Of a stretch of DNA of 28,307 nucleotides, positions 5,755-26,830 are shown one piece after another. Position 1 is the first letter of the stretch, and each line of letters begins with the position of its first letter. The notes below the pieces were generated by a model. The model was not told the origin of the DNA. It ran no database searches and saw only the letters and a list, made by a program, of their open reading frames with translations. Location of the stretch: assembly GCA_050178385.1 (NCBI GenBank), contig JBFXGD010000030.1, forward strand, positions 1 to 28,307, read 5' to 3'. The stretch comes from Calditrichaceae bacterium. GTDB lineage: Bacteria > Calditrichota > Calditrichia > Calditrichales > JBFXGD01. The translations under genes were made by a program, and so were the position numbers.

Positions 5755-5767
5755 CTTTATCAGCCTT

Positions 5768-6946: not shown

Positions 6947-6997
6947 TATAATATCCCATTCAAATTGGTTAAAACTGTTTATTGTCTTGTTTTTTTT

Positions 6998-8350: not shown

Positions 8351-8366
8351 TTCCTCACCGTAATCG

Positions 8367-8975
8367 TTAAGATCTGATTTTTAGTCCGTTTAAAATTAAA
8401 TCGAGTAAATATTCTGTGTCTTTCTCGAGCTGCTTGAAGTCAGCAGAGGAGGGTCGAGGTGACTGCAGTGATAAAAACAGTTCCAGTCGCCGGGCTTCCA
8501 TCATTGTTCTTATGGCGTCGGCGGCCCTTTTAGGATCACCCTCACTGAATTCGCCGATATCCATGCCCTCTTTGATTAAATCAGCCATAAAATCAACGTT
8601 TTTTTCTTTCAGCTTTTTGTGCAGATTTTGTATCAGAATATGATTATCAAGCATCGCCTGAACATTCAGATCCATAAGCTCCGCCCGATCCTTTAAAAAC
8701 AGAACAATCGCTTTGCTGAACGCGTACATCTTTTCAGTTGCCGTTTGACTGTCCTTAAATTTAGATTTAATCTCTGACAATAATCTAATCGCTTCACGCT
8801 CAATGGCGTCACTGAAAATCGCCTCTTTGTTTTTATAATAGTAGTAGAGAGACGCTTTTTTCATGCCGATAACCGCGGCAATATCGTCCATCGTTGCCTT
8901 AACCGCGCCATATCTTGCCAGGCAGGACATGGCCGCGTCAAGGATCTGTTCTTTTTTTAATTCGTCTTTTTCCAT
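8367..8975 (-). CDS. TetR/AcrR family transcriptional regulator
   Basis: N-terminal HTH ILDAAMSCLARYG...TMDDIA...KASLYYYYKNKEAIF. First gene of the efflux operon. Confidence 0.93.
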   Translation of the reverse strand: MEKDELKKEQILDAAMSCLARYGAVKATMDDIAAVIGMKKASLYYYYKNKEAIFSDAIEREAIRLLSEIKSKFKDSQTATEKMYAFSKAIVLFLKDRAELMDLNVQAMLDNHILIQNLHKKLKEKNVDFMADLIKEGMDIGEFSEGDPKRAADAIRTMMEARRLELFLSLQSPRPSSADFKQLEKDTEYLLDLILNGLKIRS

Positions 8976-11570: not shown

Positions 11571-11824
11571 CTGGCCCCATTGCCATCCCGTATAAGTTTT
11601 CCGGTTTTGAAGGGGATGTGGACTTCATTAACAATACGCTTTCAGAAGGGAAAGCTGCTATTCACCATAGTGACCGGTATGCTGATTTATATCATCCGCA
11701 TTATCGGTTAGTAAGTAAAAATTACTATGATTGGCTTCGACGGCTGGACTCAAAAGGTCAACCGTAAGGAAGCGTCATATCTTATTTGTCCTTGCGGGTC
11801 TGTACCCGGGAATTTTCAGATCCC

Positions 11825-11839
11825 TGAGAATGGTTATCA
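11825..11839. promoter_or_regulatory. Fur-box-like 7-1-7 palindrome upstream of TRIC gene
   Basis: TGAGAAT-G-GTTATCA versus Fur core TGATAAT-N-ATTATCA (2 mismatches), about 30 nt before ATG 11871. Confidence 0.35.
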
Positions 11840-11870
11840 TCAGTTTGTATTCAGAAAAAGGTTAAAATGT

Positions 11871-12506
11871 ATGTTTCTCAGTCCGTTCACGGTTTCAAAT
11901 ATACTTGATCTTATGGGGGTGGCGGTTTTTGCTGTCAGCGGCGCCCTTGTCGCGGGAAGGAAGGGACTGGACCTTTTGGGTGTTTTCGTGATTGCCGCCG
12001 TGACCGCGGTCGGCGGAGGCACGCTCCGGGATCTTCTGCTGGACAGACATCCCATATTCTGGATTGATGATCCGGGATATCTTATCGTTATCATGGGTGC
12101 ATCGGCTTTTGCCATTGTGTATGTGCGTCTCAGGAAACCTCCCGGCAACGCCCTGCTGATCGCCGACGCTCTCGGTCTGGCGCTTTTTACGATTGCCGGT
12201 ACGCAGATTGCCGAAACGGCCGGACTGCACCCTGTAATCACTGTGTTAATGGGAACCATGACCGGTGTTGCCGGCGGGGTGATAAGGGATGTGCTGAGCG
12301 CGGAGGTTCCGCTAATCCTGCGCCGTGATATCTACGCGACAGCCGCGATCTCCGGTTCATCAATTTATCTGCTGATTCAGGTATTTGGAGTCAGCCGATT
12401 TATTGCCATGGGGGCGGGTTTGCTGACTGTTGTCATTCTCAGGGCAATGGCCATTCTTTGGGGACTGAGGCTGCCGGTATTTCGCCTTCCGCAAAAACCG
12501 AATTAG
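11871..12506 (+). CDS. Trimeric intracellular cation channel family (UPF0126 / YadS-YicG-like) membrane protein
   Basis: Two repeats: FAVSGA...GGGTLRDLLL and DALGLALFT..G...GVAGGVIRDVL. Start moved from 11727 to the in-frame ATG 11871 because the upstream extension is non-homologous. Confidence 0.9.
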   Translation: MFLSPFTVSNILDLMGVAVFAVSGALVAGRKGLDLLGVFVIAAVTAVGGGTLRDLLLDRHPIFWIDDPGYLIVIMGASAFAIVYVRLRKPPGNALLIADALGLALFTIAGTQIAETAGLHPVITVLMGTMTGVAGGVIRDVLSAEVPLILRRDIYATAAISGSSIYLLIQVFGVSRFIAMGAGLLTVVILRAMAILWGLRLPVFRLPQKPN

Positions 12507-12664
12507 CCGACAAGTCAACTTCCCGTCAATTTCTAATCGGTCTTATAGGAATAATCATAAGACACTCTTCTCTATATCTATTTGTGCTTTATCTTAAGAT
12601 GCGAACCACGGACGACGAAAAGAGCCGGCATTGATCAATCCATAAATACAACCACTAAAATGTT

Positions 12665-12701
12665 ATAAGCCTGCTGATATTTCCCGGCAGGCTTATTTTT
12701 T
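12665..12701 (+). terminator. Intrinsic terminator separating TRIC gene from the DUF134 cluster
   Basis: ATAAGCCTGCTG-atatttcc-CGGCAGGCTTAT followed by TTTTT. Confidence 0.75.
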
Positions 12702-12822
12702 ATCACTAAAACACTAATTCATATCGTATTGCAGTCCTGATCAAGGCACAATCATATAAAACAGATGCCGCATCACTATTTATATCATCCATTAAATGTG
12801 ATAAAAAATTTTTACAATTAAA

Positions 12823-12879
12823 TTGCTAAATGAACATAAGTTCATTATATTCAAACATACAAATGATCATATGTTCAAT
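12823..12879 (+). promoter_or_regulatory. Sigma70-type promoter with two palindromic operator copies
   Basis: TTGCTA (12823-28), 17-nt spacer, TATATT (12846-51). Perfect-arm palindrome AATGAAC-ataa-GTTCATT (12829-46) and a second copy AATGATC-atat-GTTCAAT (12862-79). Confidence 0.65.
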
Positions 12880-12894
12880 TCACTGGAGCCGGGA

Positions 12895-13317
12895 GTGCGA
12901 TCATCCTATCGAAAAAGACGTGTACATTTACCGCCGAAGTACCAATATTTTAAACCGGCCGGTATACCGCGCAAAATGTTAAAAAGCATGATATTAACGC
13001 TTGATGAATTTGAGGCAATCCGCCTGGCTGATTATCTGGGAAAAGAGCACCGGGATGCCGCGCAAAGAATGAATATATCGCGGCCGACATTTACGCGGCT
13101 TATCGCAAAAGCCCGGCAGAAGGTGTCAAAAGCGATCATTGATGGTATGGAATTAGTGATAGAAGGGGGTAATATAGATTTTGCTCAGTCATTGCACCGC
13201 TGCGATGAATGTGGTGAAGAACTTATTTTAGCCCGGTCACAGAGTCTGCAAAATTGCCCTGAGTGTGGATCTCAGGATATAAAAAGTCTGAATTCGGAAT
13301 ATGTAAAAACTCATTAA
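12895..13317 (+). CDS. DUF134 (UPF0251) predicted DNA-binding protein with C-terminal zinc ribbon
   Basis: RKRRV...FKPAGIP...LTLDEFEAIRLADY.G...AAQRMNISRPTF.R....AR.KV..A...G..L.IEGG, then CDEC...CPEC. Likely GTG start at 12895 after GGAG. Confidence 0.9.
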   Translation: MRSSYRKRRVHLPPKYQYFKPAGIPRKMLKSMILTLDEFEAIRLADYLGKEHRDAAQRMNISRPTFTRLIAKARQKVSKAIIDGMELVIEGGNIDFAQSLHRCDECGEELILARSQSLQNCPECGSQDIKSLNSEYVKTH

Positions 13318-13338
13318 TTATTGCAAAAGGAATACTCG

Positions 13339-13527
13339 ATGAAATTTATTGTTGATAATCAGGCATGCAGGGGATGCGGAATTTGTGAACGTGTGTGTCC
13401 GCAGGTTTTCAGAATGCGTAATGATATGTCGGTCAAAATTGAAATGACACCGGTACCTGCCGAGTTGATCAACTGCGCTCTGAGAGCCGAAAATAGTTGT
13501 CCATTAAGAATTATCAGCCATCATTAA
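13339..13527 (+). CDS. Single-cluster ferredoxin (COG1141-type)
   Basis: CRGCGICERVCP and distal SCP. RBS AAGGA before ATG 13339. Confidence 0.85.
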   Translation: MKFIVDNQACRGCGICERVCPQVFRMRNDMSVKIEMTPVPAELINCALRAENSCPLRIISHH

Positions 13528-13543
13528 CCTATCGGGAGAAACA

Positions 13544-13915
13544 ATGAAAATAGCTATCGCATCTGACGACGGTGAAAGCATTGCCATGCATTTTGGCCGT
13601 ACACGCGGTTTTTTGATTTACACTATTGAAAATGGCGTTGTTAAAGAACGCACATATACGCTTAATGATTTTACAGGACATGCCCGCGGGTTGAGCGGTA
13701 CATCACACAGCGCGGATCACCATGGACCGATTCTATCAGCTCTGAATGGGTGTAAAGCTGTTATTTCACGCGGCATGGGCCGCAAGATTTACGACGATTT
13801 GCAATCAATCGAAATTGAAGCTTTTATCGTACAGGAAACCATTGCAGATACAGCTCTTGACCTTTATTTAAAGAACCGGCTTTTGGATAACCCTGAAAAG
13901 GGATGCGAGCATTGA
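13544..13915 (+). CDS. NifB/NifX family (iron-molybdenum cofactor-binding-like) protein
   Basis: MKIAIASDDG..IAMHFGR...F, His-rich loop, C.AVISRGMG, C-terminal GCEH. Confidence 0.88.
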   Translation: MKIAIASDDGESIAMHFGRTRGFLIYTIENGVVKERTYTLNDFTGHARGLSGTSHSADHHGPILSALNGCKAVISRGMGRKIYDDLQSIEIEAFIVQETIADTALDLYLKNRLLDNPEKGCEH

Positions 13916-14074
13916 CCGTTTATGTTAAACAAGAAAGGGCGTTTGTCGCGTGGCAATAAATGTTACTTATAATCATCTGGAATGGCAATCAAAAACCGGA
14001 TTCCTCTATTGGCAGAAAAAAGCTCAATCCTGCTGTTATTTGGGATCCATATAAAAATAGAAATTATTAACACC

Positions 14075-14497
14075 ATGAATATTTCAGACAGAACAAAGAA
14101 GATATTAAAGAATACTAACAAAACATTTTTGAAGATGATGCCGATACTTATTGGTGTAATGGCGTTGATGGCATTGCTGATCAGTATAATCCCCACAAAA
14201 AAATTAACTTCAATCTTTACGGGAAATACTCTCATTGACCCATTTATCGGATCTTTTCTTGGTAGTATCTTATCGGGAAATCCCATCGTCAGCTATGTTA
14301 TAGGCAACGAATTACTGCAAGCAGGGGTCAGTACAATCGCGGTTGCCGCTTTTATGGCATCCTGGGTGACAGTAGGCATTGTTCAGGCACCGGCAGAAAT
14401 GCTTGTATTTAACAAAAGGTTTACAATCTACAGAAATGTGATTGCGTTTGTTTCAGCCGTGATAATAGCAATTTTAACTGTAAATATTTTAGGATAG
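14075..14497 (+). CDS. Predicted permease subunit A (COG0701/DUF318-like half)
   Basis: Hydrophobic. GSILSGNPIVSYVIG.ELL..GVS..AVAAF..SWVTVG...PAE...F...RN. In-frame ATG 14075 preferred over 13982. Confidence 0.75.
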   Translation: MNISDRTKKILKNTNKTFLKMMPILIGVMALMALLISIIPTKKLTSIFTGNTLIDPFIGSFLGSILSGNPIVSYVIGNELLQAGVSTIAVAAFMASWVTVGIVQAPAEMLVFNKRFTIYRNVIAFVSAVIIAILTVNILG

Positions 14498-14499
14498 AA

Positions 14500-15039
14500 A
14501 TGAACAAATCAGATAAAAAGATAAACCCGATGATTCTGTTGGGAACTATTGTGACAGCCAGTTACGCCATTTTGATGGTTGCCGATTTCAATCAGTTTTT
14601 AAAAGCTACGCGTTTATTTGGTAATATGCTCATAAATATTATTCCGGTTATGATTGTAGTCTATATCCTGATGCTTGCAATCAATTATTTTATAGAACCT
14701 ACATTCATTAAAAAACATCTTGGCAATAATTCCGGTATCAAAGGACTTCTCATAGCCATCGCCGGAGGCATTTTATCCGCAGGATCTATTTACGCCTGGT
14801 ATCCTCTGTTAGCAGATTTTAGAAGGCATGGCATGAGCAATAAGCTTATTGCCGTATTTCTTTATAACCGGGCGATAAAACTACCGTTATTATTTATGTT
14901 GATTTATTATTTTGGAGCCGCATTCACAATAATTTTTACAGTTTTTATTGTGCTCTTCTCAGTCATTAATGGGTACCTGGTGGAAATTGCGGTGCCAACT
15001 CATACAAACGAGGAGGAACCATTGTGGAAAAACCATTGA
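14500..15039 (+). CDS. Predicted permease subunit B (COG0701/DUF318-like half)
   Basis: KKHLG..SG.KG..IAI..GILSAGSIYAWYPLL......GM.....AVFLYNRAIKLPLL. Starts 2 nt after subunit A. Confidence 0.75.
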   Translation: MNKSDKKINPMILLGTIVTASYAILMVADFNQFLKATRLFGNMLINIIPVMIVVYILMLAINYFIEPTFIKKHLGNNSGIKGLLIAIAGGILSAGSIYAWYPLLADFRRHGMSNKLIAVFLYNRAIKLPLLFMLIYYFGAAFTIIFTVFIVLFSVINGYLVEIAVPTHTNEEEPLWKNH

Positions 15040-15470
15040 AGATCGGCATCATTATTTGCGACCGCTACCGTCGCTGCGCCGGCGGAAAATGTTTCAGGGC
15101 GCTCGAAAACAGGGAAGGGGCCTTCAGCATATATAAAAATCAAAAAGTAGTAGTGGCGGGTTATACTACATGCGACGGCTGCCCGGGTGGCAATATCGAA
15201 TACGCGCCGAATGAAATGAAAAATAACGGAGTAAAAAAAATACATTTTGCCACTGGAATGATTGTAGGGTATCCACCATGCCCGTATATCAAACACTTTA
15301 AGGAATTTATAGAAAAGAATTACGAGATAGAAGTTGTGATGGGGACGCACCCAATACCGGAAAAATATTATAAAATGCATAATAGTATGGGAACCTGGGA
15401 GTCAGATGAATGGCAGGATATCATAAAACCGGTCATTTGTGATCCTGAAATCCGTAAAGCTTACGATTGA
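15024..15470 (+). CDS. CGGC domain-containing putative Fe-S/metal-binding protein
   Basis: KIGIIICDRYRRCAGGKCF, TCDGCPG, GYPPCP, GTH. Strong RBS GAGGAGG before GTG. Confidence 0.88.
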   Translation: MEKPLKIGIIICDRYRRCAGGKCFRALENREGAFSIYKNQKVVVAGYTTCDGCPGGNIEYAPNEMKNNGVKKIHFATGMIVGYPPCPYIKHFKEFIEKNYEIEVVMGTHPIPEKYYKMHNSMGTWESDEWQDIIKPVICDPEIRKAYD

Positions 15471-15503
15471 GAAAAAAATATATAAAATCATAGGAGTATA
15501 AAC

Positions 15504-15689
15504 ATGCATGATCATAAAAAACAAAATCTGGGTGACGGGGGATACTGTGTCTGCCCAAAATGTGATTATCGCGCGCCACATAAAAATGGCGTTCCGTGCC
15601 AGGATGAACTGTGCCCGAACTGCAATGCAAAGCTTCTGCGGGAAGGCTCCGACCATCATAAAATGTATCTGAAAAAGAAGCAAAAATAA
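15504..15689 (+). CDS. Small Cys-rich metal-binding protein
   Basis: GDGGYCVCPKC....H..GVPC....CPNC...LLREGS.HH. RBS AGGAG upstream. Confidence 0.8.
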   Translation: MHDHKKQNLGDGGYCVCPKCDYRAPHKNGVPCQDELCPNCNAKLLREGSDHHKMYLKKKQK

Positions 15690-15756
15690 TATTTGAAACG
15701 AATGGCGAATTACAACAACATAATAAGACAGAGGATAAATTTAAATCGAGTCAATT

Positions 15757-16497
15757 ATGAAAAGTTTAAAGATTAGACAAAAATGGATGGAAGAGTTAAT
15801 GCCTTCCGGTATACCTGTTCCATCAAGCACGTTAATAAGCGGACCGGGAGGGGCGGGTAAGCCTTTAATCGGCGCTGTTATTGCCGATGCCTGGTTAAAT
15901 CAGGGGGGCTCGCTTATTCATTTTTTGATCAATTTTGATCGCGTATATGCCGATAAGATGCTGAATCTTTTTAATCCGGATCTGGAAAAATATAAAGACC
16001 GGATTGTGTACGTGGAGATCGATCCTCTGATAGAAGGGATTGAAAAAACGAATGATGTTACACTTCGCGGCAATTTGCTGATACCTGAGAATGTTGACAC
16101 GGCGATTCGTGAGGCAAAGGCAATGCTGCCGGAAACCGAAAGCGGTTCACTTATATACGCGTCAGCCTTAAATATGCTGCTTTTTTCAAAAAGCTATAAC
16201 CAGGCCATCCATGACAAATTTCTGGAAATAATTGGCGGTGGCGAAAACTGCATGTTTACTGTAGCAACTAATACATTTGAGGATCAGATCTCGCAATGGG
16301 AGAACAAAGCTGATAATCTCTTCTATTCGCGAAGCACTGATCAGATGCGACTGGGATTCAGTATATTAAGGTTGAAAGACAATTCGTATCGAAGCGATGA
16401 GGTTGAAGTTCCCCTAACTGAAGATGAACTCGTAAGCATACGGGCTGAGGCTAATAAAGCTCGAAAACACTTAATACCTGTTATAAAACAAATCTGA
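15757..16497 (+). CDS. RAD55/KaiC-like (RecA-fold) ATPase-domain protein with degenerate motifs
   Basis: LMPSGIPVPSSTLISGPGGAGKP resembles the KaiC/RAD55 N-terminus. ADNL...ILRLKD resembles the family C-terminus. Confidence 0.7.
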   Translation: MKSLKIRQKWMEELMPSGIPVPSSTLISGPGGAGKPLIGAVIADAWLNQGGSLIHFLINFDRVYADKMLNLFNPDLEKYKDRIVYVEIDPLIEGIEKTNDVTLRGNLLIPENVDTAIREAKAMLPETESGSLIYASALNMLLFSKSYNQAIHDKFLEIIGGGENCMFTVATNTFEDQISQWENKADNLFYSRSTDQMRLGFSILRLKDNSYRSDEVEVPLTEDELVSIRAEANKARKHLIPVIKQI

Positions 16498-16510
16498 AAT
16501 CGAGACTCTT

Positions 16511-17152
16511 ATGCGCATAACAATTGTTTTTGATAATACAAGTTTATCTGAAGAATGCCAGGCCGAGTGGGGCTTTGCATGCTACATTGAAACTGAACAC
16601 AGGCGAATTTTATTTGATACCGGAGCAGATGGAAAAATATTGCTGGATAATATGCGGGCACTGTCCATCGATCCCAAATCAGTTGATGACGTATTTATCA
16701 GCCATAATCATTTTGATCACATTGGCGGGTTGGCCGCCTTTTTAAATGAAAACAGTGCTGTACGTATATTTCTGCCAAAATCATTTCGCGGTGTGCGCAA
16801 AGCCCGAGAGATAATCTACATTGACGAAGCCAGGCAAATTGATGAAGGACTGTTCACCACCGGTGAGCTGGATGGCCTGGAGCAGTCGCTTGTCATTCAA
16901 ACATCAAAGGGGCTTGTTGTTGTTGTTGGTTGCGCGCACCCTGATATGCAAAAAATATTAACATCTGCTTCGCAATTCGGGAATATCTACTGGCTTATTG
17001 GCGGCCTGCATGGTTTTAATAAATTCCATTTGCTTAAAGATTTAAAACTTATTTGTCCGACACACTGCACTCAATATAATACTGAAATTAAAAATCTGTT
17101 TCCTTTGCCGCATACAGAAGGAGGCGTGGGCAGAACAATAAACATACCATAA
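16511..17152 (+). CDS. MBL-fold metallo-hydrolase (COG1237-type)
   Basis: EWGFAC.I....ILFDTG, SHNHFDHIGG, GCAHP, GGLH, PTHCT. Confidence 0.9.
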   Translation: MRITIVFDNTSLSEECQAEWGFACYIETEHRRILFDTGADGKILLDNMRALSIDPKSVDDVFISHNHFDHIGGLAAFLNENSAVRIFLPKSFRGVRKAREIIYIDEARQIDEGLFTTGELDGLEQSLVIQTSKGLVVVVGCAHPDMQKILTSASQFGNIYWLIGGLHGFNKFHLLKDLKLICPTHCTQYNTEIKNLFPLPHTEGGVGRTINIP

Positions 17153-17164
17153 AAGAGAAATATT

Positions 17165-17476
17165 ATGAACAATACCATTACACAAAAAGATATCCGGGAA
17201 ATTCTGGAGAAGATCCAGCATCCTGAGATAGATGCCTCGCTAGAGGACCTGGGAATGATTCTGGATCATGTAATTGACGGACAAATTGTTAATGTGGCAT
17301 TGGCATTACCTGCAGCGAAAATTCCACAAGCGGTTGAGGATGCCATCATTAAAAGTATTAATGAACCACTGGCTAAACATGGTCTTCAAACAAATATTCA
17401 GTTTTTTAATATGAGTGAAGAAAACCGCCGGAAGTTCTTAGCCCTGGCAAAAGCAAACTGGAAAGGCGCCATATAA
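17165..17476 (+). CDS. DUF59 (Fe-S cluster assembly / PaaD-SufT-like) domain protein, Cys-less variant
   Basis: IREILEKIQHPEIDASLEDLGMI matches the DUF59 N-terminal pattern L..V.DPE....IVDLG.V. Confidence 0.65.
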   Translation: MNNTITQKDIREILEKIQHPEIDASLEDLGMILDHVIDGQIVNVALALPAAKIPQAVEDAIIKSINEPLAKHGLQTNIQFFNMSEENRRKFLALAKANWKGAI

Positions 17477-17500
17477 TTTTCATAGAAGGATAGAAAAAGC

Positions 17501-18457
17501 ATGACATCTCAAGATTTTAAAAATATAGTGTTTGGGCCTGTCCCTTCAAGGCGTCTGGGTCGTAGTCTTGGAATAAATAATATCCCGCCCAAAATTTGTA
17601 GCTATACCTGTATATATTGTCAGGTTGGTAATACCAATTCGATGAGTATAGAAAGGCGGGCCTATTACAGCCCACAGTTGATTTTTGATATGGTAAAAGA
17701 AAAGGTCAGCCGGTGCCGGGCGGAAAATGAGCCTATAGATTATCTTGCCTTTGTACCGGATGGTGAACCCTCTCTGGATTTAAACCTGGGTGAAACGATC
17801 AATCTATTGAAATCTCTTGATATTCCGATTGCGATCATTACTAACAGCTCATTGATTAACCGCGAGAATGTAAAAAGTGAATTGTTGCAATGCGACTGGA
17901 TTTCCTTCAAAATTGACTCGGTTGACCCGGACACGTGGCATCAGATTGACCGACCGCACGGGAAACTACAGCTTGTTGACTTACTGGACAATCTGATAAG
18001 TTTTAAAACTCGCTTTAAGGGTAAACTGGTAACAGAAACAATGGTTGTACAAGATATAAATGACAGCGTACCGGTAAATACAAACACAGTGGAATATCTG
18101 GCGCGACTGCAACCTGACACAGCCTATATCGCCCTGCCTACCAGACCCCCGGCGGAATCGAGCGTGCGGCCCGCATCGGCCCAATCCATAACAAACATAT
18201 ATCAACTTTTTAAGAAACACTTAAAACGGGTGGAATTATTAACCGGTTATGAGGGCAACAAATTTTCATCATTGGGAAATATCCATGATGATATTCTCAG
18301 CATAACAGCCGTCCATCCGATGCGTATGGACGCGCTGCAAAGACTTTTGAATAAAAAACATGTTGATATAAAGCTGGTGGATGAGATGTTGTCCAATGGG
18401 GAAATCGTCCAGTCAAAATATCAGGGTCATACGTTTGTGCTTAAAGCATATAATTAA
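17501..18457 (+). CDS. Radical SAM protein (COG0731-type)
   Basis: FGPVPSRRLGRSLGINN, CSYTCIYC (CxxxCxxC), DGEPSL, ITNSSL, PTRPPAE. Confidence 0.92.
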   Translation: MTSQDFKNIVFGPVPSRRLGRSLGINNIPPKICSYTCIYCQVGNTNSMSIERRAYYSPQLIFDMVKEKVSRCRAENEPIDYLAFVPDGEPSLDLNLGETINLLKSLDIPIAIITNSSLINRENVKSELLQCDWISFKIDSVDPDTWHQIDRPHGKLQLVDLLDNLISFKTRFKGKLVTETMVVQDINDSVPVNTNTVEYLARLQPDTAYIALPTRPPAESSVRPASAQSITNIYQLFKKHLKRVELLTGYEGNKFSSLGNIHDDILSITAVHPMRMDALQRLLNKKHVDIKLVDEMLSNGEIVQSKYQGHTFVLKAYN

Positions 18458-18501
18458 AAGATGGCCACCGCATGCTTAAAAAAAGGAATAAACAGACAAT
18501 T

Positions 18502-20361
18502 ATGTTAAACCTGCGATATCCGTTTATAATGGCCCCTGTAAAACTAGGGTATAGTGACGCATCCGGAGAAGTTAATCACAAACACCTGAAATTTTATATG
18601 GACCGCAGCGCTCATATGGGTGCATTGACGCTTGAACCGCTTTTTCTTGATAAAGGTTTACGCGAGATACCCACCCAGCTGGGAATCGATTCCGATGATA
18701 AAATAAGTGGATTGCGCACCCTGACCGATGCTATCCATCAGAAGGGGGCAAAAGTCATTGCCCATCTCAATCATCCCGGCAGAATGGCGAATCCCAAAAT
18801 GCCGGGTAATTATTATGTCTCCGCTACCGACAAAGCATGCGAAAATGGGGGCGCGGTACCGAAAAGGATGGATCAGGCGGATATGAAATCCATTATTGAT
18901 TTATTCACGGCAGCGGCACATCGGTCTGAAGAGGCTGGTTTTGATATCATCGAACTGCAAATGGGACACGGTTATCTTCTGGCACAATTTTTATCACCTG
19001 ATGTCAATGACCGGACAGACGAATTTGGCGGTAGTTTTGAAAACCGCCTGCGTTTTCCGCTTATGATATTCGAAGCGGTTAAAAAAACGGTGCATCTGCC
19101 AATTATTGTCAGGGTCAGCGGAACAGAGATGACACCTCATGGAATTCTGATAAATGAAACCATTGCGCTGGCAAAAATACTTGAAGGGAAAGGAGCCGCG
19201 GCCATACATGTTTCAGCCGGTACTGTTTGCTCCACACCACCATGGTTCTTTCAGCACATGTTTGTTCCTAAAGGCAAAACATGGGAATTAGCCGCTGATG
19301 TTAAAAAAGAACTGAATATCCCGGTCATTTTTGTTGGGAGAATAAATTCAATCCGCGATGTGGATCGTTTAAAAAATGAGTTTGGCGCCAAATACATGGC
19401 ATTAGGGCGGGCATTAGTGGCTGATCCCGAATTTGCGGGGAAGTATCTGCAAGAAATAGATGGCCGTATTCGCCCGTGTTTGGCATGTTCGGAAGGATGT
19501 CTTGGCGGCGTCCGTTCCGGAAATGGATTAGGATGTGTTGTAAATCCTGCCTTGGGTAATGGGGTTGCCGTAATGACAGAAGCCGTGGAGAAAAAACATT
19601 TTGCGGTTGTCGGCGCCGGATTGGCAGGACTGGAGGCGGCCTTAACGCTAAAATCCCGCGGTCATATGGTAACGCTTTATGAGAAAAATGAGATCGGTGG
19701 TCAATTCAATCTGGCCTGGCGTCCGCCCAACAAGGAAAGCTTAAAAGAGATCGTTGATTTTTACGAGTACGAGCTAAAAGATAAAAACATCCATTTTGTA
19801 AATAAAGAAGCAACTGAATCTGAATTATTAGACAAAAAATTTGAAGCGGTCATTATAGCGACCGGAGCAGTGCCCGCTGTTCCTCCCGTAAAAGGCCTGA
19901 CGAAATTTTTCTGGACTGAGTTTCTGCATGATGAAAATTTACCGGTCAACAAAACGATCCTTATTATCGGCGGAGGATTGATCGGCATGGAAGTCGCCAG
20001 CAAATTGGTTGATAAAAAGAACAACGTGATTATTGTTGAAATGCTGGAAGAAGCGGCGCGTGGTATGGAAATGATCGAAAAAAATATGACAATGAGTAAA
20101 CTCAGCATGAAAAATGTACGAATATATACAGAAACACGGGTTATTGAAGTCGTCGGAGACAGGGTTGTTCTTGCTGGAAAACACGAACAAATCTTAGAGA
20201 ATATTGATCATATAGTTGTGGCAACCGGCATGACCAGCTATCATCCTTTATATGATAGCCTGAAAGATAAATTAACGGTACATCTTATCGGGGATGCTAA
20301 AAAAACAGGAAAAGCTCAGGATGCCATTCAGGATGGATATAAACTGGCTTTAGAGCTATAA
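18502..20361 (+). CDS. NADH:flavin oxidoreductase, OYE barrel + 4Fe-4S + FAD/NAD(P) domains (FadH / enoate reductase-like)
   Basis: HPGR, GHGYLLAQFLSP..N.RTDEFGGSFENRLRF, GRALVADP, CLACSEGC-x11-C, VVGAGLAG, IIGGGLIG. Alternative start 18472. Confidence 0.9.
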   Translation: MLNLRYPFIMAPVKLGYSDASGEVNHKHLKFYMDRSAHMGALTLEPLFLDKGLREIPTQLGIDSDDKISGLRTLTDAIHQKGAKVIAHLNHPGRMANPKMPGNYYVSATDKACENGGAVPKRMDQADMKSIIDLFTAAAHRSEEAGFDIIELQMGHGYLLAQFLSPDVNDRTDEFGGSFENRLRFPLMIFEAVKKTVHLPIIVRVSGTEMTPHGILINETIALAKILEGKGAAAIHVSAGTVCSTPPWFFQHMFVPKGKTWELAADVKKELNIPVIFVGRINSIRDVDRLKNEFGAKYMALGRALVADPEFAGKYLQEIDGRIRPCLACSEGCLGGVRSGNGLGCVVNPALGNGVAVMTEAVEKKHFAVVGAGLAGLEAALTLKSRGHMVTLYEKNEIGGQFNLAWRPPNKESLKEIVDFYEYELKDKNIHFVNKEATESELLDKKFEAVIIATGAVPAVPPVKGLTKFFWTEFLHDENLPVNKTILIIGGGLIGMEVASKLVDKKNNVIIVEMLEEAARGMEMIEKNMTMSKLSMKNVRIYTETRVIEVVGDRVVLAGKHEQILENIDHIVVATGMTSYHPLYDSLKDKLTVHLIGDAKKTGKAQDAIQDGYKLALEL

Positions 20362-20365
20362 AATT

Positions 20366-21613
20366 ATGACAATATTAACATCCACAAGCTCAAAAATAAA
20401 TTTCCGCGCGTTTATATGGCATTCGGGATTTCTGGCGTTGGCCAGTAATTTTATGGATATTGATACGATCATCCCGTCCATGCTGATAAAGGCCGGCGGC
20501 AATTCCATACATCTTGGTATTATGACCGCTATCATGCTTGGAGGATCCAGTTTATTCCAGCTTGTTTTTGCCGGATTTTTATCGGGAAAGCCCTGCAAAA
20601 AAAAATATTTGCTGACGGGGATAAATCTGAGAGTTGCGGCGCTTTTGGCGCTTGCGGTTCTGTTTCTTACAGCTTCTTCATTAAGTAGCGCTTTGATAAT
20701 CGCGCTGATTTTTTTGTTTATCTCTGTTTTTTCATTTAGCGGCGCTTTTGCCAACGTTTCTTATGTGGATATTCTTGGTAAATCGGTACTGGAAAATAAA
20801 CGTAAAAAGTTTTTCTCGCTTAAACAGATTTTTGACAGTATCGGTTTAATCAGCACGGCATTTATTGTTCGGGAGCTGGTAACATATTTTGACTACCCGA
20901 AAAACTACTTTGTTTTATTTTTGATCGCCGGTTTGTTGTTGTTGGTAGCTTCGCTGGGATTCTGGCGGATTCAGGAAGCTTCATCCGCTGTCCGTTCGCA
21001 CAAGGGGCTTGTGGATTTTTTTCGTATGATCCCCGGTGAGATCCGTAACAACTCCAATCTTAAATATTACCTGTTGCTGATCAACACTCTTGGTTTGACT
21101 CTCAGCCTGATGCCATTTTTTATTTTATTCGCAAAGGACAGTTTTGGTTTAACCTTTGAATCAGTAGGTAATTTTTTACTATTCAGAACAATAGGTATGT
21201 TGACCGCAGGAATAATATTATTTCAATTCGCCAGCCGTTTTATTTATAAACACCTTCTCATGTTCCTGATACTACTGGGAGCGGCCCTGCCTTTGATCAG
21301 CCTGACGCTGGCGCGTTCAGCGGAAAATTATCATTACATTTTTATTCTGACCGGAATTTTTTTCGCTATATATAAAGTGGCCCTCAATGGCGTTCTTTTA
21401 GAAATTTCAACCGATGAAAACCGGGCTACCTATACGGGAATATCAGGGGCCGGCAATATATTGACAACCCTTTTCCCCTTATTTGCCGGAGTACTGATTT
21501 CGGCGTTTGGTTATTATATGGTTTTTTTAACTGTTTCAGCCATTATTCTGCTCAGTTTCAGTTTTGTGTTCAAACTTGATTGCAGACCGGTTCATTCAAG
21601 ATCAAGCGGGTAG
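20366..21613 (+). CDS. MFS transporter
   Basis: 415 aa with about 12 hydrophobic helices in two halves. DILGK....KR and EIS..ENRATY.G loop motifs. Confidence 0.85.
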   Translation: MTILTSTSSKINFRAFIWHSGFLALASNFMDIDTIIPSMLIKAGGNSIHLGIMTAIMLGGSSLFQLVFAGFLSGKPCKKKYLLTGINLRVAALLALAVLFLTASSLSSALIIALIFLFISVFSFSGAFANVSYVDILGKSVLENKRKKFFSLKQIFDSIGLISTAFIVRELVTYFDYPKNYFVLFLIAGLLLLVASLGFWRIQEASSAVRSHKGLVDFFRMIPGEIRNNSNLKYYLLLINTLGLTLSLMPFFILFAKDSFGLTFESVGNFLLFRTIGMLTAGIILFQFASRFIYKHLLMFLILLGAALPLISLTLARSAENYHYIFILTGIFFAIYKVALNGVLLEISTDENRATYTGISGAGNILTTLFPLFAGVLISAFGYYMVFLTVSAIILLSFSFVFKLDCRPVHSRSSG

Positions 21614-21618
21614 ACAAG

Positions 21619-22641
21619 ATGGAAATTCTTAAAATTATCGAACACGCTCTGATGATTACGAGTTTCGTTTTTATCATGATGCTGCTCATAGAATATATCA
21701 ATGTTCAAACACGTGGCAGCTGGCAGGAATCTCTAAAAAAAAGCCGCTGGGGGCAATATATACTTAGCGCGTTTCTCGGTTCTGTTCCGGGGTGCCTTGG
21801 CGCTTTTACGGTTGTTTCCCTCTATTCACACCGCGTTGTGAGTTTCGGAGCGCTGGTAACAACCATGATCGCTACAAGCGGCGATGAATCATTTGTCATG
21901 TTTTCTATGTTTCCGCGCGAGGCCATCGGACTGACGGTAATATTGTTTTTTGTTGGAATTGCGGCGGGATATCTGACGGATCTTTTCTATAAAAAACAGG
22001 ATCTTTTGCTAATGGCTGAAGACCATCATTTGCTCATTCACAAGACGGATGTATGCCACTGTTTCCCAAAAGGTGAAATTTGGCAACAAATTAAAAACAG
22101 CACCTTACCCCGGACACTGCTTATAGGAATTTTTAGCTTGTTTTTGTTTTTTATGGTCAGCGGATCCATCGGGCCTGCTGTCTGGAACTGGAAAAAAATA
22201 TCGTTTACAGGCGGTGCGGTATTCGGTTTGTTTGTTGTAATTACGGTACCTGATCATTTTCTTGAACAGCACTTATGGCTGCATGTGATGAAAAAACACG
22301 TGCCCAAAATTTTCATCTGGACATTTGCGGCGTTGCTGGTCATTCACTACATGGAAAGCTATATCGATGTTAAAGAATGGATTCAGGAAAATTATTTTCA
22401 GGTTCTAATTGTAGCTATTCTGGTCGGTATTATCCCTGAATCGGGTCCACACCTTGTATTTGTGACCCTGTTTGCCGCCGGGAGCCTTCCTTTCAGCATA
22501 TTGCTGGCCAGCTCGATTGTCCAGGACGGACATGGTATGCTGCCCATGCTGGCAGTTTCCAGAAAAGGGTTTATGTTGGTTAAGGCTATAAATATTTCGG
22601 CGGGATTGATCGTAGGTCTGATTTCTCAAAGCATATTATAA
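21619..22641 (+). CDS. Putative metal (manganese-type, DUF2899-like) transporter
   Basis: LGSVPGCLGAF, ATSGDES, GIIPESGPHL, SSIVQDGHGMLP, His/Cys-rich central loop. Start at ATG 21619 avoids overlap with the MFS gene. Confidence 0.7.
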   Translation: MEILKIIEHALMITSFVFIMMLLIEYINVQTRGSWQESLKKSRWGQYILSAFLGSVPGCLGAFTVVSLYSHRVVSFGALVTTMIATSGDESFVMFSMFPREAIGLTVILFFVGIAAGYLTDLFYKKQDLLLMAEDHHLLIHKTDVCHCFPKGEIWQQIKNSTLPRTLLIGIFSLFLFFMVSGSIGPAVWNWKKISFTGGAVFGLFVVITVPDHFLEQHLWLHVMKKHVPKIFIWTFAALLVIHYMESYIDVKEWIQENYFQVLIVAILVGIIPESGPHLVFVTLFAAGSLPFSILLASSIVQDGHGMLPMLAVSRKGFMLVKAINISAGLIVGLISQSIL

Positions 22642-22690
22642 TTGTTCGGTTTATTTACATTTACAGTTTTAAAATTTAAGGGAATCAAAA

Positions 22691-23878
22691 ATGAAAAAAA
22701 ATCTAAACACAGGTATGGCGACGAAAGCGATTCACGCCGGTAATCTGGCTGATCCAATTTTTGGAGAAGTATCGGTGCCGATCTTTCAGACATCCACCTT
22801 CTCATTTCCCAGCGCCGATGAAGGAGCCGCGCGTTTTGCCGGTGAAAGTGACGGATTTATTTATACACGTATGGGGAATCCGACAATCAAGGCGCTTGAA
22901 GATAATGTGGCAATCCTTGAATCGGGTTTTAAGGGTCTGGCAACCGCGAGCGGTATGGCGGCCATAACGACTGTATTTCTGACATTTCTGAATAAAGGCG
23001 ATCATCTGGTCTGTACCGATTCAGTTTACGGGCCTACACGGATGGTGCTGGAAAGGGAGTTTTCGCGCTTTGGAGTATCCGCTACCTTTGTGAACAGTTC
23101 GGATTCTCAAAATGTTAAGGAGGCCATCAGGCCCAATACTAAATTGGTATATGTGGAAACACCGGCCAATCCGACCATCAGCATTACCGATCTGCGGGCG
23201 GTAGCTGAAATTGCCCATCTAAATGACGCTTTGTTCGTTGTAGATAATACATTTGCCAGTCCTTATCTGCAGCGCCCTATTGAGCTGGGTGCGGATGTTG
23301 TTGTGCATTCATTAACAAAATTTATAAACGGTCACAGCGATGTTGTCGGTGGGATGATTGTGGTAAAAAGTGAAAAATTATTCAAAACAATCAGACCTGT
23401 TCTTAACGCTTTTGGCGGTACAATGGATCCTCATCAGGCATGGCTTATTTTACGCGGCGTAAGGACACTGGCCCTTCGTGTAGATAAAGCACAGTCTAAT
23501 GCGGAAAAAATGTCTATGTTTCTGAAAAAGCACCCCAGTGTTAATTGGGTTTCATATCCGGGTCTCGATGAGCATCCGCAGCATAACTTAGCAAAAGAGC
23601 AGATGGATGGTTTTGGCTCCATGATTTCATTTGGTGTCAAAAACGGATTCAGTGGTGGAAAAACAGTAATGGATAATGTGGAGCTGTTTACACTTGCGGT
23701 TTCACTTGGCGGAGTGGAATCTTTAATAGAACATCCGGCCTCCATGACCCATGCGACCATTCCCAGGGAAGAACGCCTTTTGGCTAACATCAAAGACGAA
23801 TTGGTGCGCATGTCTGTAGGTTGTGAAGATTTCGAAGATTTGAAAAATGACATAGATCAGGCGCTAAATAAAATCTGA
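22691..23878 (+). CDS. PLP-dependent Cys/Met metabolism enzyme (methionine gamma-lyase / cystathionine lyase family)
   Basis: PIFQTSTF, IYTRMGNPT, SGMAAI, ETPANPT, DNTFASP, HSLTKFINGHSD (PLP Lys), AVSLGGVESLIEHPASMTH, R.SVG.E. Confidence 0.9.
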   Translation: MKKNLNTGMATKAIHAGNLADPIFGEVSVPIFQTSTFSFPSADEGAARFAGESDGFIYTRMGNPTIKALEDNVAILESGFKGLATASGMAAITTVFLTFLNKGDHLVCTDSVYGPTRMVLEREFSRFGVSATFVNSSDSQNVKEAIRPNTKLVYVETPANPTISITDLRAVAEIAHLNDALFVVDNTFASPYLQRPIELGADVVVHSLTKFINGHSDVVGGMIVVKSEKLFKTIRPVLNAFGGTMDPHQAWLILRGVRTLALRVDKAQSNAEKMSMFLKKHPSVNWVSYPGLDEHPQHNLAKEQMDGFGSMISFGVKNGFSGGKTVMDNVELFTLAVSLGGVESLIEHPASMTHATIPREERLLANIKDELVRMSVGCEDFEDLKNDIDQALNKI

Positions 23879-23900
23879 TCAAAAGCATGTTCAATTTTAG

Positions 23901-24041
23901 CCGGTCAGCCCGGGGTGTAACTCTTTGCAGTGGGAGCCATTTGGCTGACGGTCTTCAGAATATGGGAACCGGCGATATTTTTTGGCTGAGTCTGCCAATA
24001 TTTTACCTTTCGCAAAAAAGAAATGAATCGCCGGTTATTTT
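23901..24041. other. Structured intergenic region with nested inverted repeats after the cluster
   Basis: GTCAGCC/GGCTGAC (23904-10/23943-49). AACCGGCGAT/ATCGCCGGTT (23967-76/24027-36) is a perfect 10-bp pair followed by ATTTT. Confidence 0.45.
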
Positions 24042-24257: not shown

Positions 24258-25541
24258 ATGACGGAGCAAAATATGACAAGAAAGAAAATATTTTGGATAG
24301 GCGGCATCGTTATTCTTGTCGTGGTAGCGGCAGTTTTGTTTTCAATGAATGGCAACAATGAAGAAGCTGTCGTCATCCAGACGGCTAAGGTTGACAAGCA
24401 AAAGATAATCGAAACCGTGACCGCCACGGGTATAATACAGCCGGAAACACAGGTAAAGATAAGCGCGGATGTGGCTGCTAAAATTATCAGGCTGGGTGTT
24501 AAAGAAGGCGATTGGGTGGAAAAAGGTCAATTGCTGGTTCAACTGGACCGTGAAAAATTCTTAGCGGTTGTGGAAAGCGCCGAGGCCAATCTTCGATCCA
24601 TGGAAGCAACGGCCAATCTGGTAAAAGAAAACATGAATAAAACCGAAAAAGATTATATGCGCGTCAATGATTTGTACGAAAAGCAGCTGGAATCTCAGGC
24701 CTCGATGGATCAGGCTTACGCGGCTTATAAAGTCGAAAAAGCGCGTCATCAATCAAATCTGGAACAGGTCGATCAGGCAAAAGCATCACTTAAACAGGCC
24801 AAAGACGATTTATCCAAAACCACCATATACGCTCCGATGGACGGAACGGTTAGTCAATTAAATAAAGAGGTTGGCGAAATAGCTCTGGGATCGCAGTTTC
24901 AGGAAGATGTCATAATGGTGATTTCAAATCTGACAGGGATGGAAGCGCTGGTGGATGTGGATGAGAACGATATCGTTTCCGTACATCTTGCAGACAGCGC
25001 GTCGATTGAAGTGGATGCGCTTCCGGATCATGTGTTCCGGGGAACAGTCAGTGAAATCGCCAGCAGCGCCAAGGTAAATGCCACGGGCACGGCTGACCAA
25101 AAAACAGAATTTGAAGTGAAGGTCGGATTACGTAATCCGGGTGATCAGCTGAGACCGGGGATGACGGCAACCGCGGATATTATAACCGAAACACGTGAAA
25201 GTGTTCTCGCGATACCCATCCAATGTGTCACCCTGCGCACCCCTGAGCAATTAGAAGTGGCCGAAGCTCAAAAAACATCTGAGGATTCACTCGCCAGTCC
25301 GGCGTACGCGCCCGATAAAGACGGCTTTGTTCCGATCGTGTTTGTCGTTAAAGATAGTCAGGTAAAGGCGGTTCAGGTTGAAACAGGTATACAAAGCGAA
25401 ACTCATATAGAGATCGTGACCGGACTGGATGAAGGGGATGAAATTGTCACAGGCAATTTCAGGGCTATCAGCGAGACTCTCCAGAATGGTGCCCGTATAA
25501 AGGTTGAGAATGAAAATAAGTCACCGCTTGTAAAAAAATAA
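24258..25541 (+). CDS. MacA-like efflux periplasmic adaptor subunit
   Basis: N-terminal TM anchor, VTATG.IQP...V.I, VKEGDWVEKGQLL, IYAPMDGTV, VDENDI, LRPGMTA. Confidence 0.92.
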   Translation: MTEQNMTRKKIFWIGGIVILVVVAAVLFSMNGNNEEAVVIQTAKVDKQKIIETVTATGIIQPETQVKISADVAAKIIRLGVKEGDWVEKGQLLVQLDREKFLAVVESAEANLRSMEATANLVKENMNKTEKDYMRVNDLYEKQLESQASMDQAYAAYKVEKARHQSNLEQVDQAKASLKQAKDDLSKTTIYAPMDGTVSQLNKEVGEIALGSQFQEDVIMVISNLTGMEALVDVDENDIVSVHLADSASIEVDALPDHVFRGTVSEIASSAKVNATGTADQKTEFEVKVGLRNPGDQLRPGMTATADIITETRESVLAIPIQCVTLRTPEQLEVAEAQKTSEDSLASPAYAPDKDGFVPIVFVVKDSQVKAVQVETGIQSETHIEIVTGLDEGDEIVTGNFRAISETLQNGARIKVENENKSPLVKK

Positions 25542-25568
25542 GAGACGGTTCAATCAGGAACGATCCCT

Positions 25569-26804: not shown

Positions 26805-26830
26805 TCTTATCATAAAAAGAGAGAATAAAG

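Follow-up and report, generated by a model that had tools for sequence, protein, structure and literature searches.

The 28.3-kb stretch of DNA analyzed here (28,307 nucleotides, hereafter the window) is an entire contig of a 3.9-Mb metagenome-assembled genome (MAG) of an uncultured, anaerobic Calditrichaceae bacterium, 94% complete and designated G000. Between positions 12895 and 23878 it carries fifteen open reading frames (ORFs), g01 to g15, all on the + strand and led by a gene encoding a DUF134-type helix-turn-helix (HTH) protein. Our analysis indicates, with a probability of about 0.6, that this operon is a variant, autorepressed by DUF134 and lacking MinD-type ATPases, of the 'orange-protein-like' regulon that anaerobes possess. 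Handling of metal-sulfur species is probably its function and is the best supported one, because the operon encodes Cys/His-rich carriers and three permeases, and because genes for iron and zinc uptake and their regulators are part of the gene pool to which it belongs. Any specific chemistry is graded below the regulon reading.

Anaerobes rely heavily on Fe-S and other metal-sulfur enzymes, and the acquisition, carriage and sensing of such species beyond the SUF, ISC and NIF systems are poorly known. The orange-protein (ORP) system has been studied for years and no clear function has emerged. The present analysis adds a concrete regulatory element, a 16-bp palindrome with DUF134 as its probable binder, and a list of regulon members obtained with two independent baits. 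It also adds a recurrent DUF134-NifX fusion, which is a pointer to how the signal may be sensed, and two conserved, unstudied protein families, one of KaiC-fold proteins with a 'GKP' motif and one of radical SAM proteins whose column identity across phyla is about 58%. Should the proposed function be true, the trafficking of Fe-S or FeS(aq) in sulfidic habitats would open to direct experiment.

Operator and proposed regulator of the operon

The elements at the head of the operon are the following.

12823..12851, + strand: sigma-70-type promoter TTGCTA-17-TATATT, with the same -35/operator/-10 layout ahead of the DUF134 genes of relatives
12830..12845, no strand assigned: operator O1, a perfect 16-bp palindrome, ATGAACATAAGTTCAT, occupying the promoter spacer and conserved across the phylum
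12863..12878, no strand assigned: operator O2, an imperfect copy, ATGATCATATGTTCAA, with 2 mismatches, 33 bp downstream of O1
12895..13317, + strand: g01, DUF134/UPF0251 HTH protein with a C-terminal CxxC...CPxC motif (PF02001, 80.5 bits vs cut-off 27)

The GTG start codon of g01 at 12895 is preceded by GGAG (12885-12888), and O2 lies just 5' of this ribosome-binding site and start codon. A same-genus (sister) genome, 97% complete, has ATG at the position of the GTG, and the start of g01 is therefore fixed. Alignment of promoters revealed a constant layout in the phylum, consisting of -35 box, O1, -10 box, about 13 nt, O2, Shine-Dalgarno sequence and start codon; a second operator copy at equal spacing was present in most promoters of relatives. 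No sigma-54-type -24/-12 element was found in 12500-12900 when up to 2 mismatches were allowed. Inside the operon there are no further operators except one site with 2 mismatches in g09, which is at chance level (18 of 100 shuffled sequences gave at least 3 matches).

In the 3.9-Mb genome the exact motif, ATGAAC-N4-GTTCAT, is present at just 2 sites, each ahead of a stand-alone DUF134 gene; sites with one mismatch were mostly intragenic and were left out of the operator counts. The second exact site, on contig C253, takes the same promoter position ahead of a second stand-alone DUF134 gene (locus L087:690-1483, - strand). With the same promoter and operator, this gene is followed by one for an 80-aa Gly/Arg-rich protein, which is a paralogue of the Cys-rich miniprotein g07 of the window and bears the same Cys motif at its end; the pair resembles a regulon unit in minimal form, with two genes. 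Another kind of palindrome in the genome, ATGAACGATCGTTCAC or a near match to it, is repeated with a spacing of 21 bp downstream of a gene for a sigma-54 activator (C199:3628-3664) and recurs at C209:654-669; it is probably the site of another regulator.

The loci are samples, taken from 81 genomes of one phylum and from the best 80 of 276 genomic stretches that match the P-loop protein g08. Related genomes are not independent, and the counts given throughout describe recurrence and are no statistics. In the phylum sample the exact motif was present in 40 of 81 genomes, with 62 sites as against 7 for a reversed control, and 39 of the 62 sites had an A/T-rich central tetrad (ATAA, ATAT, TTAT etc.). 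Operator and pool genes are both present in a complete genome of the phylum. Among the 29 site loci that were fetched, 21 had an A/T core; 20 of these adjoined genes of the pool described below, 16 lying directly ahead of a DUF134 gene, as opposed to none of the 8 sites with other cores. The 80 P-loop loci, 1.11 Mb in all, contained 14 exact sites, where about 0.07 would be expected for 12 fixed bases. Nearly all 14 were intergenic, they came from both Calditrichota and Bacteroidales, and they preceded DUF134, cupin, methyltransferase or ARMT1-CGGC-P-loop genes, or the P-loop gene itself.

Such a layout, with one operator over an optimally spaced core promoter and a second copy farther downstream by three helical turns, is classic for an autorepressor. 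Judged from this arrangement, g01 would probably repress its own operon through O1 and O2: a g01 dimer would bind O1 in the promoter spacer and O2 33 bp downstream.

The four C-terminal Cys residues of g01 are invariant in 26 of 26 relatives. A third DUF134 gene of the same genome (contig C35, L003:1501-2349, + strand) encodes a protein of 282 aa in which DUF134 is joined to a CxxC...CxxC motif and a NifX-type domain; this domain contains a long His-rich insert, and the gene adjoins one for a FecCD-like permease. Both the DUF134 and the NifX-type domain were carried by 13 of its 26 database matches, one of them from a Desulfatitalea MAG, with identities of 26-85% (query itself excluded). The recurrence of the fusion points to a functional link of the DNA-binding domain to a cluster-binding domain that is separate in the window, where it is encoded as g03. 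In a full-text literature search, whose coverage stops short of subscription-only papers, no published characterization was found for DUF134, UPF0251 or 'CGGC domain'.

Recurrence of the operon genes in other genomes

Downstream of g01 the operon consists of the following genes.

13339..13527, + strand: g02, single-cluster 4Fe-4S ferredoxin (Fer4_13, E = 4.9e-12)
13544..13915, + strand: g03, NifX/NifB-C-terminal-like (Nitro_FeMo-Co) protein (PF02579, 50.2 bits vs cut-off 26.3)
13982..14497, + strand: g04, half of a split ArsP_1-type permease (PF03773 positions 163-291; 23.2 bits, under the cut-off of 32.3)
14500..15039, + strand: g05, other half of the split ArsP_1-type permease (PF03773 positions 2-83; 34.2 bits vs cut-off 32.3)
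15024..15470, + strand: g06, CGGC-domain protein (PF08821, 102 bits)
15504..15689, + strand: g07, 61-aa Cys-rich miniprotein, CxCxxC..H..C..CPxC (no Pfam or NCBIfam family)
15757..16497, + strand: g08, KaiC/RecA-fold P-loop protein with degenerate Walker motifs, GPGGAGKP (structure model and alignments)
16511..17152, + strand: g09, small metallo-beta-lactamase (MBL)-fold protein (Pfam match and nearest PDB entry 7dck, E = 1e-37)
17165..17476, + strand: g10, Cys-less DUF59 (FeS_assembly_P) protein (Pfam match)
17501..18457, + strand: g11, radical SAM protein of an uncharacterized, highly conserved family (PF04055, 49 bits vs cut-off 29.5)
18472..20361, + strand: g12, Fe-S flavoenzyme of the FadH/BaiCD/old yellow enzyme (OYE) type (PF00724, 177 bits; PF07992, 105 bits)
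20366..21613, + strand: g13, major facilitator superfamily (MFS) transporter (Pfam match)
21619..22641, + strand: g14, ArsP_2-type permease with ten transmembrane segments (NF037962, 155 bits vs cut-off 100)
22691..23878, + strand: g15, Cys/Met-metabolism pyridoxal phosphate (PLP) lyase, methionine-gamma-lyase-like (PF01053, 511 bits)

Every gap in the operon is shorter than 70 nt (range -16 to 67; from g01 to g15, 21, 16, 66, 2, -16, 33, 67, 13, 12, 24, 14, 4, 5 and 49 nt). The original prediction, made from the sequence before any database search, had described 15 closely spaced genes on one strand, which the ORF coordinates bear out, and all of its domain calls were upheld by Pfam and NCBIfam searches. 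At the sister-genome locus (L006) the order g01-g14 is kept, with 73-93% identity, and even the ArsP_1 permease gene is split; after the ArsP_2 gene, an unannotated 199-aa ORF and a glycine-transporter-family gene stand where the window has the lyase. A DUF134-led unit had also been claimed, and the single promoter, the conserved operator and this synteny agree with it. Genes g01-g14, and probably g15, would thus form one operon read from the sigma-70-type promoter.

Recurrence was assessed with two mutually independent baits, the P-loop protein g08 and the operator motif alone. Relatives of g08 numbered 66, besides itself, in the protein database, and its matches in the species-representative genome collection, in 276 stretches, were spread over Calditrichota, Bacteroidales, Ignavibacteria, Zixibacteria, Anaerolineae, Thermotogae, Thermoplasmata, Thermococcus and others. 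When the window genes were searched by tblastn on the 80 best of these loci, with up to 10 kb on each side, the radical SAM gene was found in 28, the MBL gene in 19, the OYE-type flavoenzyme in 16, DUF59 in 10, the miniprotein in 9, the MFS and CGGC genes in 8 each, and ArsP_2 and DUF134 in 6 each. The gene most often located directly 3' of the P-loop gene was that of the MBL protein (12 loci). Identities across phyla within such clusters reached 50-59% for MBL, 60-69% for CGGC and 44-56% for radical SAM.

Clustering of the ORFs around the P-loop gene disclosed recurrent neighbours that are not in the window: a ChrR-type cupin (20 loci), methyltransferases (20 and 12), YggS (17), an AmmeMemoRadiSam radical SAM protein (16), a TrmO-like protein (13), a small ferredoxin (11), ZIP (9), FeoB (8) and NadA (8). 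Further members of the pool were other NifX-type proteins, Mrp, MinD-ferredoxin, DUF89/ARMT1, DtxR/FeoA, Fur and sigma-54 activators. Genes for iron and zinc uptake and regulation (FeoB, FeoA, DtxR, Fur, ZIP) recurrently adjoin the P-loop gene, and order and membership vary from locus to locus.

The second bait, applied to the operons located behind the operator in 20 extended loci of the phylum, recovered DUF134 in 11, the miniprotein in 10, MinD-ferredoxin in 7, MBL, CGGC and cupin in 6 each, ArsP_2 in 5, P-loop and radical SAM in 4 each, ARMT1 in 3, and DUF59, MFS and the lyase in 2 each. One of these operons reads operator - MinD - MinD - NifX - P-loop - DUF59 - CGGC - miniprotein - MBL - radical SAM - ArsP_2, and is nearly the window operon with MinD genes added. 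Orthologues of g13 with 66% identity were found in operator-linked operons, and in one relative an operator lies about 30 nt ahead of the g14 orthologue. Co-occurrence in other genomes, which the original prediction expected, was therefore observed for most families and in many phyla, with strong recurrence of the radical SAM and MBL genes. The genes are not a fixed 15-gene system; they are a local assortment from a larger, shuffled pool that includes cupin, DUF89/ARMT1, methyltransferases, a TrmO-like protein, ZIP, Feo and NadA. The operon would then be the assortment made by this genus from a pool that the same operator controls in anaerobes belonging to many phyla.

Three further observations concern individual loci. 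Eight Bacteroidales loci (L024, L031, L033, L035, L044, L048, L060 and L067) have a conserved operon in common, cupin - ferredoxin - YggS - NadA - AmmeMemoRadiSam radical SAM - P-loop - (MBL) - LarA-like 'hexonate epimerase' - DUF1684 - ZIP - NifX, and in two of them, L031 and L067, the cupin gene has a DUF134-type operator upstream, which links the AmmeMemoRadiSam enzyme to this regulon. In Thermococcus MAGs (L032, L068 and L069) the P-loop gene is divergent from DtxR-FeoB and near ModC and NadC, an archaeal context that is dominated by metal uptake. At G035:C5:35223-36064 the first MinD-ferredoxin gene behind a double operator contains one TGA and three TAA codons, and may be a pseudogene or an assembly error.

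Two explanations that need no common pathway bear on these data. Ferredoxin, MFS, OYE and PLP lyase genes belong to very large, ubiquitous families, and a run of unrelated same-strand genes could in principle have come together by chance. The synteny of g01-g14 in the sister genome, the recovery of the same families by two independent baits and the conservation of the operator across the phylum exclude such a juxtaposition.

According to the second explanation, which we consider unlikely, the genes share a regulon and no pathway: they would be co-regulated for one condition, such as low redox potential, sulfide or metal limitation, while performing unrelated jobs in metabolite repair, NAD metabolism, assorted metalloenzymes and transport. 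The freedom with which order and membership vary among loci would be expected on this account, as would the presence among the P-loop neighbours of NadA, NadC, NAD kinase, YjeF, SIR2, YggS and class I fructose-bisphosphate aldolase (FBA), together with peptide deformylase, the DUF89/ARMT1 damage-control phosphatase, uracil-DNA glycosylase (UDG) and glyoxalase. A response of the Desulfovibrio orp operons to redox potential, described in PMC8359166, would also fit. However, the operator is most often accompanied by genes for small Cys-rich or NifX-type proteins and for Fe-S ATPases of the P-loop kind, and not by those for housekeeping enzymes; the regulator is tied to a cluster-binding domain in the DUF134-NifX fusions; and the high identity of MBL, CGGC and radical SAM proteins across phyla suggests a conserved common task.

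Encoded proteins and proposed function

The P-loop protein g08 has no Pfam match and merely weak matches to KaiC models of NCBIfam. Its predicted structure (pLDDT 93) is a single domain of KaiC/RecA-type fold, for which Foldseek returned SSO2452, PH0284, FlaH and KaiC (CI) with probability 1.00 and TM-scores of 0.60-0.70, and its profile matches SSO2452 with E = 4.9e-08. The 'GKP' motif that the original prediction had singled out is well founded, K35 and P36 being invariant in 28 of 28 relatives. The Walker A sequence, GxxGxGKP, thus contains an invariant Pro at the Thr/Ser position, and the Asp position of Walker B is taken by a nearly invariant Gly; in HMMER alignments to SSO2452 and PH0284, the GKT of these proteins stands opposite GKP of g08, and their (V/I)DS opposite fGs. 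Neither the GxxxxGK[T/S] form of Walker A nor an acidic Walker B residue, by which KaiC/RecA ATPases are recognized, is present in g08. The Thr/Ser of Walker A is the Mg-binding residue, and from its sequence g08 probably binds nucleotide without hydrolysing it. In a complex prediction g08 and the MBL protein g09 scored 0.00, a value that counts neither for nor against an interaction. Among the papers listed in a literature search, none gave a link of a KaiC-like gene to iron control. In fold and size g08 is similar to the single-domain KaiC/RecA proteins SSO2452, PH0284 and archaellum FlaH/ArlH; it differs from them by the GKP Walker A, by Gly in place of the Walker B Asp and by a genomic context of metal-sulfur genes and neither motility nor clock genes.

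In the radical SAM protein g11, residues C33, C37 and C40 (CxxxCxxC) are invariant in 22 of 22 sequences and no other Cys is, and the mean column identity of the family is 58% across phyla. Sequence search identified no relative in the PDB, fold matches were generic (TM-score about 0.5; Mmp10, PFL-AE, viperin, TYW1 and NifB), and an Atlas search for relatives returned names no more specific than 'radical SAM'. The predicted C-terminus has a helix-helix-helix-strand-strand, winged-helix-like layout. Since this is also the fold of the recognition elements of ribosomally synthesized and post-translationally modified peptides (RiPPs), an alternative to be weighed is that g11 modifies the miniprotein or the CGGC protein to give a metal-binding product that the permeases export. 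In some loci the miniprotein gene is next to the radical SAM gene or close to it, and three export-type permeases are at hand. Yet g11 lacks a SPASM or twitch domain and has no Cys beyond the three of the cluster, its fold matches are unspecific, the miniprotein accompanies DUF134 much more often than it does the radical SAM gene, and no leader-peptide features or protease were seen, all of which makes this alternative very improbable. A paralogue of g11 (43% identical) is found elsewhere in the genome (G000 C145:1137-9043), between a gene for a PAS/sigma-54 activator and genes that, to judge from N-terminal sequences only, appear to encode an Rnf complex; like locus L126, this set may constitute a second arm under sigma-54 control.

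The small proteins of the operon are rich in conserved metal ligands. Six Cys and three His of the CGGC protein g06 are invariant (13 sequences), as are C15, C17, C20, H26, C32, C37 and C40 of the miniprotein g07 in 20 of 20 relatives. The label 'DUF5320' was considered for the miniprotein and rejected, g07 and its 80-aa paralogue matching no Pfam family at the thresholds used. In g09 the conserved residues are HxHxDH, C141, H143, H167, H185 and C186; a literature search for its nearest structure, 7dck, found no related paper. The DUF59 protein g10 is indeed Cys-less, as had been noted, with no conserved Cys among 13 sequences. The translation of g12 contains the cluster motif C-x2-C-x3-C-x11-C (CLACSEGC...C), which together with an OYE domain and a FAD/NAD domain assigns it to the FadH/BaiCD type, all equivalog models remaining below cut-off (BaiCD, 384 vs 825).

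The permeases raise the question of whether the operon is an island for detoxification of metalloids or heavy metals (As, Sb, Se, Te), in which ArsP-type and MFS transporters would export enzymatically reduced, methylated or otherwise transformed species. With g14 passing the NCBIfam 'arsenic efflux protein' model (155 vs 100) and g04/g05 matching ArsP_1, an ArsP-type permease is shared with ars operons (g14 and g05 above cut-off, g04 below). Methyltransferases of the pool match ArsM and TehB models weakly, 39% of the members of one Atlas cluster of radical SAM look-alikes contain an HTH_5 domain of the ArsR type, and the associated sequencing runs are labelled landfill or aquatic metagenomes, which is a weak hint only. 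Nevertheless, the core of an ars operon was missing, with no ArsR, ArsC, ArsB/Acr3, ArsA or ArsD in the window, in 34 representatives of recurrent neighbour families or in 81 further neighbours; the methyltransferase matches are far under their cut-offs; and the idea leans on permease family names, ArsP_1 and ArsP_2, that span many uncharacterized permeases. We regard detoxification as quite improbable.

The PLP lyase had been proposed as a possible member and sulfur source. It does not reach the methionine gamma-lyase equivalogs (TIGR01328, 474.7 vs 549.7; NF004876, 482 vs 666). Its closest relatives are 70% identical, compared with 39-56% for its four paralogues in the same genome, and orthologues at this level occur in such clusters of two other genomes, in one case downstream of an operator and a truncated OYE gene and in the second within a sigma-54-activator/radical-SAM/CGGC/ferredoxin operon. 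This speaks for membership; the absence of the gene from the locus of the closest relative speaks against it, and makes g15 the least secure member of the operon. At the first of these loci (L121:10207-11096, G027) the operator is followed by a shortened OYE-type gene of 205 aa (covering positions 13-211 of the 342 in the profile), an 89-aa ORF and the lyase orthologue; the OYE fragment is probably a decayed copy of a g12-type flavoenzyme.

Upstream, the operon is delimited by the following element.

12665..12696, + strand: intrinsic-terminator-like hairpin with a 12-bp stem and 6 G-C pairs, then TTTTTTAT; it ends the upstream glycine-transporter-family gene

The upstream terminator and promoter of the original prediction were thus both located (12665-12696 and 12823-12851), but its downstream stem-loops fared less well: the stem at about 23900-23953 is followed by no T run, and its 152-nt fold is no better than shuffled sequence (z = 0.34, 119 of 200 shuffles folding equally well). 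Rfam and tRNA scans of the window returned no family and no tRNA. The glycine-transporter-family gene (11727-12506) is 5' of the operon here and 3' of ArsP_2, at the place of the lyase, in the sister genome, which is a local rearrangement at the operon ends. Farther out, a TetR - TolC - HlyD - AcrB efflux set on the - strand (2437-8975) and an HlyD - MacB - MacB set (24258-28081) flank the operon; both are ordinary systems that are not tied to it in relatives. Nitrogenase genes had been declared absent from the window, rightly so, and a search of the whole genome for PF00142 gave weak partial P-loop matches only and no nitrogenase. The genome encodes a normal SUF system. With SUF present and nitrogenase absent, the operon is therefore accessory.

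Combined, these features suggest the following scheme. The species handled would be Fe-S clusters or their precursors. The ferredoxin, the NifX-like protein, the CGGC protein, the miniprotein and the DUF59 protein would bind them and hand them on, with g08 acting as a nucleotide-binding adaptor without catalytic residues rather than as a motor. The MBL protein, the radical SAM protein, the Fe-S flavoenzyme and the PLP lyase could provide chemistry, reductant and possibly sulfide, and the three permeases could move a metal or a ligand across the membrane. The repressor would probably sense the same species via its four invariant Cys and/or a NifX-like partner. Construction or repair of metal-sulfur centres by the cluster, enzyme clients of its own and the lyase as sulfur source, all put forward in the original prediction, are suggestions derived from domain content.

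Several points weigh against it. The term 'metal-sulfur' derives from domain names and conserved Cys and His residues. The role of the four g01 Cys may be no more than structural, as a zinc ribbon, and the palindrome could be bound by another regulator. The pool is heterogeneous, with NadA, YggS, FBA, peptide deformylase, NAD kinase, YjeF, SIR2 and methyltransferases in it, and what its members have in common may be just a regulator or a growth condition and no pathway. Recurrence in the 80 P-loop loci is thin for several window genes (NifX-like g03 in 3, the split permease in 2, the lyase in 2, one by a match of 12% coverage, and the ferredoxin in 1), and about half of these loci, many of them short contigs, show the bait alone. 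Finally, with its normal SUF system the organism does not need the operon for basic Fe-S assembly.

A bolder version of the metal-sulfur reading, speculative and in our estimate rather improbable, would make DUF134 and the NifX-like domain an unrecognized metal-sulfur-sensing repressor system across anaerobes, and the operon a MinD-independent route within it that assembles or remodels a non-canonical metal-sulfur cofactor. On this doubtful version, the catalytically silent KaiC-fold protein, the winged-helix radical SAM protein and the Cys-rich mini-carriers would take FeS(aq)-like species supplied via ArsP-type permeases, or sulfide from the lyase, and would work, as a still speculative corollary, like a split, nitrogenase-independent counterpart of NifB/NifX.

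Relation to known systems

The domain of g03 is common to NifB, NifX, NafY and IssA (IPR003731). As if NifB had been split, a radical SAM gene lies in the same operon as g03; however, g11 lacks a NifX domain and its invariant Cys number only three, NifB is just one of its many generic fold matches, and the nifB model TIGR01290 matches g03 alone, with 25.7 bits against a cut-off of 343.65. IssA, a non-nif member of the family, serves as a store of iron and sulfur, in the form of thioferrate, and can rebuild [4Fe-4S] ferredoxin (PMC5524996). A direct reading of the g03 translation showed that, unlike IssA, it has no Gly-rich tail. In Methanococcus voltae growing on FeS2, IssA-clade proteins and two neighbouring radical SAM proteins rise, according to PMC9431491.

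Kinship with clusters of the ORP type had been claimed and it holds. The ORP system of Desulfovibrio vulgaris Hildenborough and the window operon are both anaerobe-type clusters in which small NifX/Di-Nase proteins are accompanied by Fe-S-binding partners, the former criterion being represented here, at the domain level, by the PF02579 match of g03. Both are small dedicated regulons. According to PMC6345978, the NifX-type domain of the Desulfovibrio protein MrpORP binds a 3Fe-4S cluster and the P-loop domain hands its Fe-S cluster to ORP proteins. A further likeness is that the operator controls MinD-ferredoxin and Mrp genes as well in relatives of this genome.

The differences from ORP are equally clear. 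The claimed lack of MinD-type ATPases was borne out by a Pfam scan of the window and by tblastn and whole-genome searches with one Orp3/4-like query, which detected no MinD-ferredoxin ATPase in the genome itself, where the query matched only the N-terminus of Mrp, nor in the same-genus genome; the same query did find such ATPases in two other genomes of the phylum. An Orp3/Orp4-type protein was thus not found in this genus. There is no two-domain MrpORP in the operon, the model NF041136 matching g03 only (27.7 bits vs cut-off 450); an Mrp-like gene lies elsewhere in the genome, on contig C8. Control of the orp operons, which respond to redox potential, lies with OrpR, a sigma-54 activator that senses redox, and with IHF (PMC8359166), in contrast to the sigma-70-type promoter and DUF134 palindrome of the window. 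The window operon also has additional enzymes and the three permeases. Of four ORP features that could be tested, three (MinD ATPases, two-domain MrpORP and sigma-54/OrpR control) are absent, and the operon is therefore viewed as a variant that works like ORP and not as a member of it.

In the design of its regulation, the operon resembles those of IscR and SufR. These are Fe-S-sensing autorepressors, each a small HTH protein encoded first in the operon that it controls. Similarly, g01 leads its operon, the operator overlaps the core promoter, and the conserved Cys residues are possible cluster ligands. By contrast, DUF134 is an unrelated family with a sigma-70-region-4-like HTH, a cluster in g01 is a candidate only, and the fusions of DUF134 to a NifX-type domain suggest that sensing would rely on another device.

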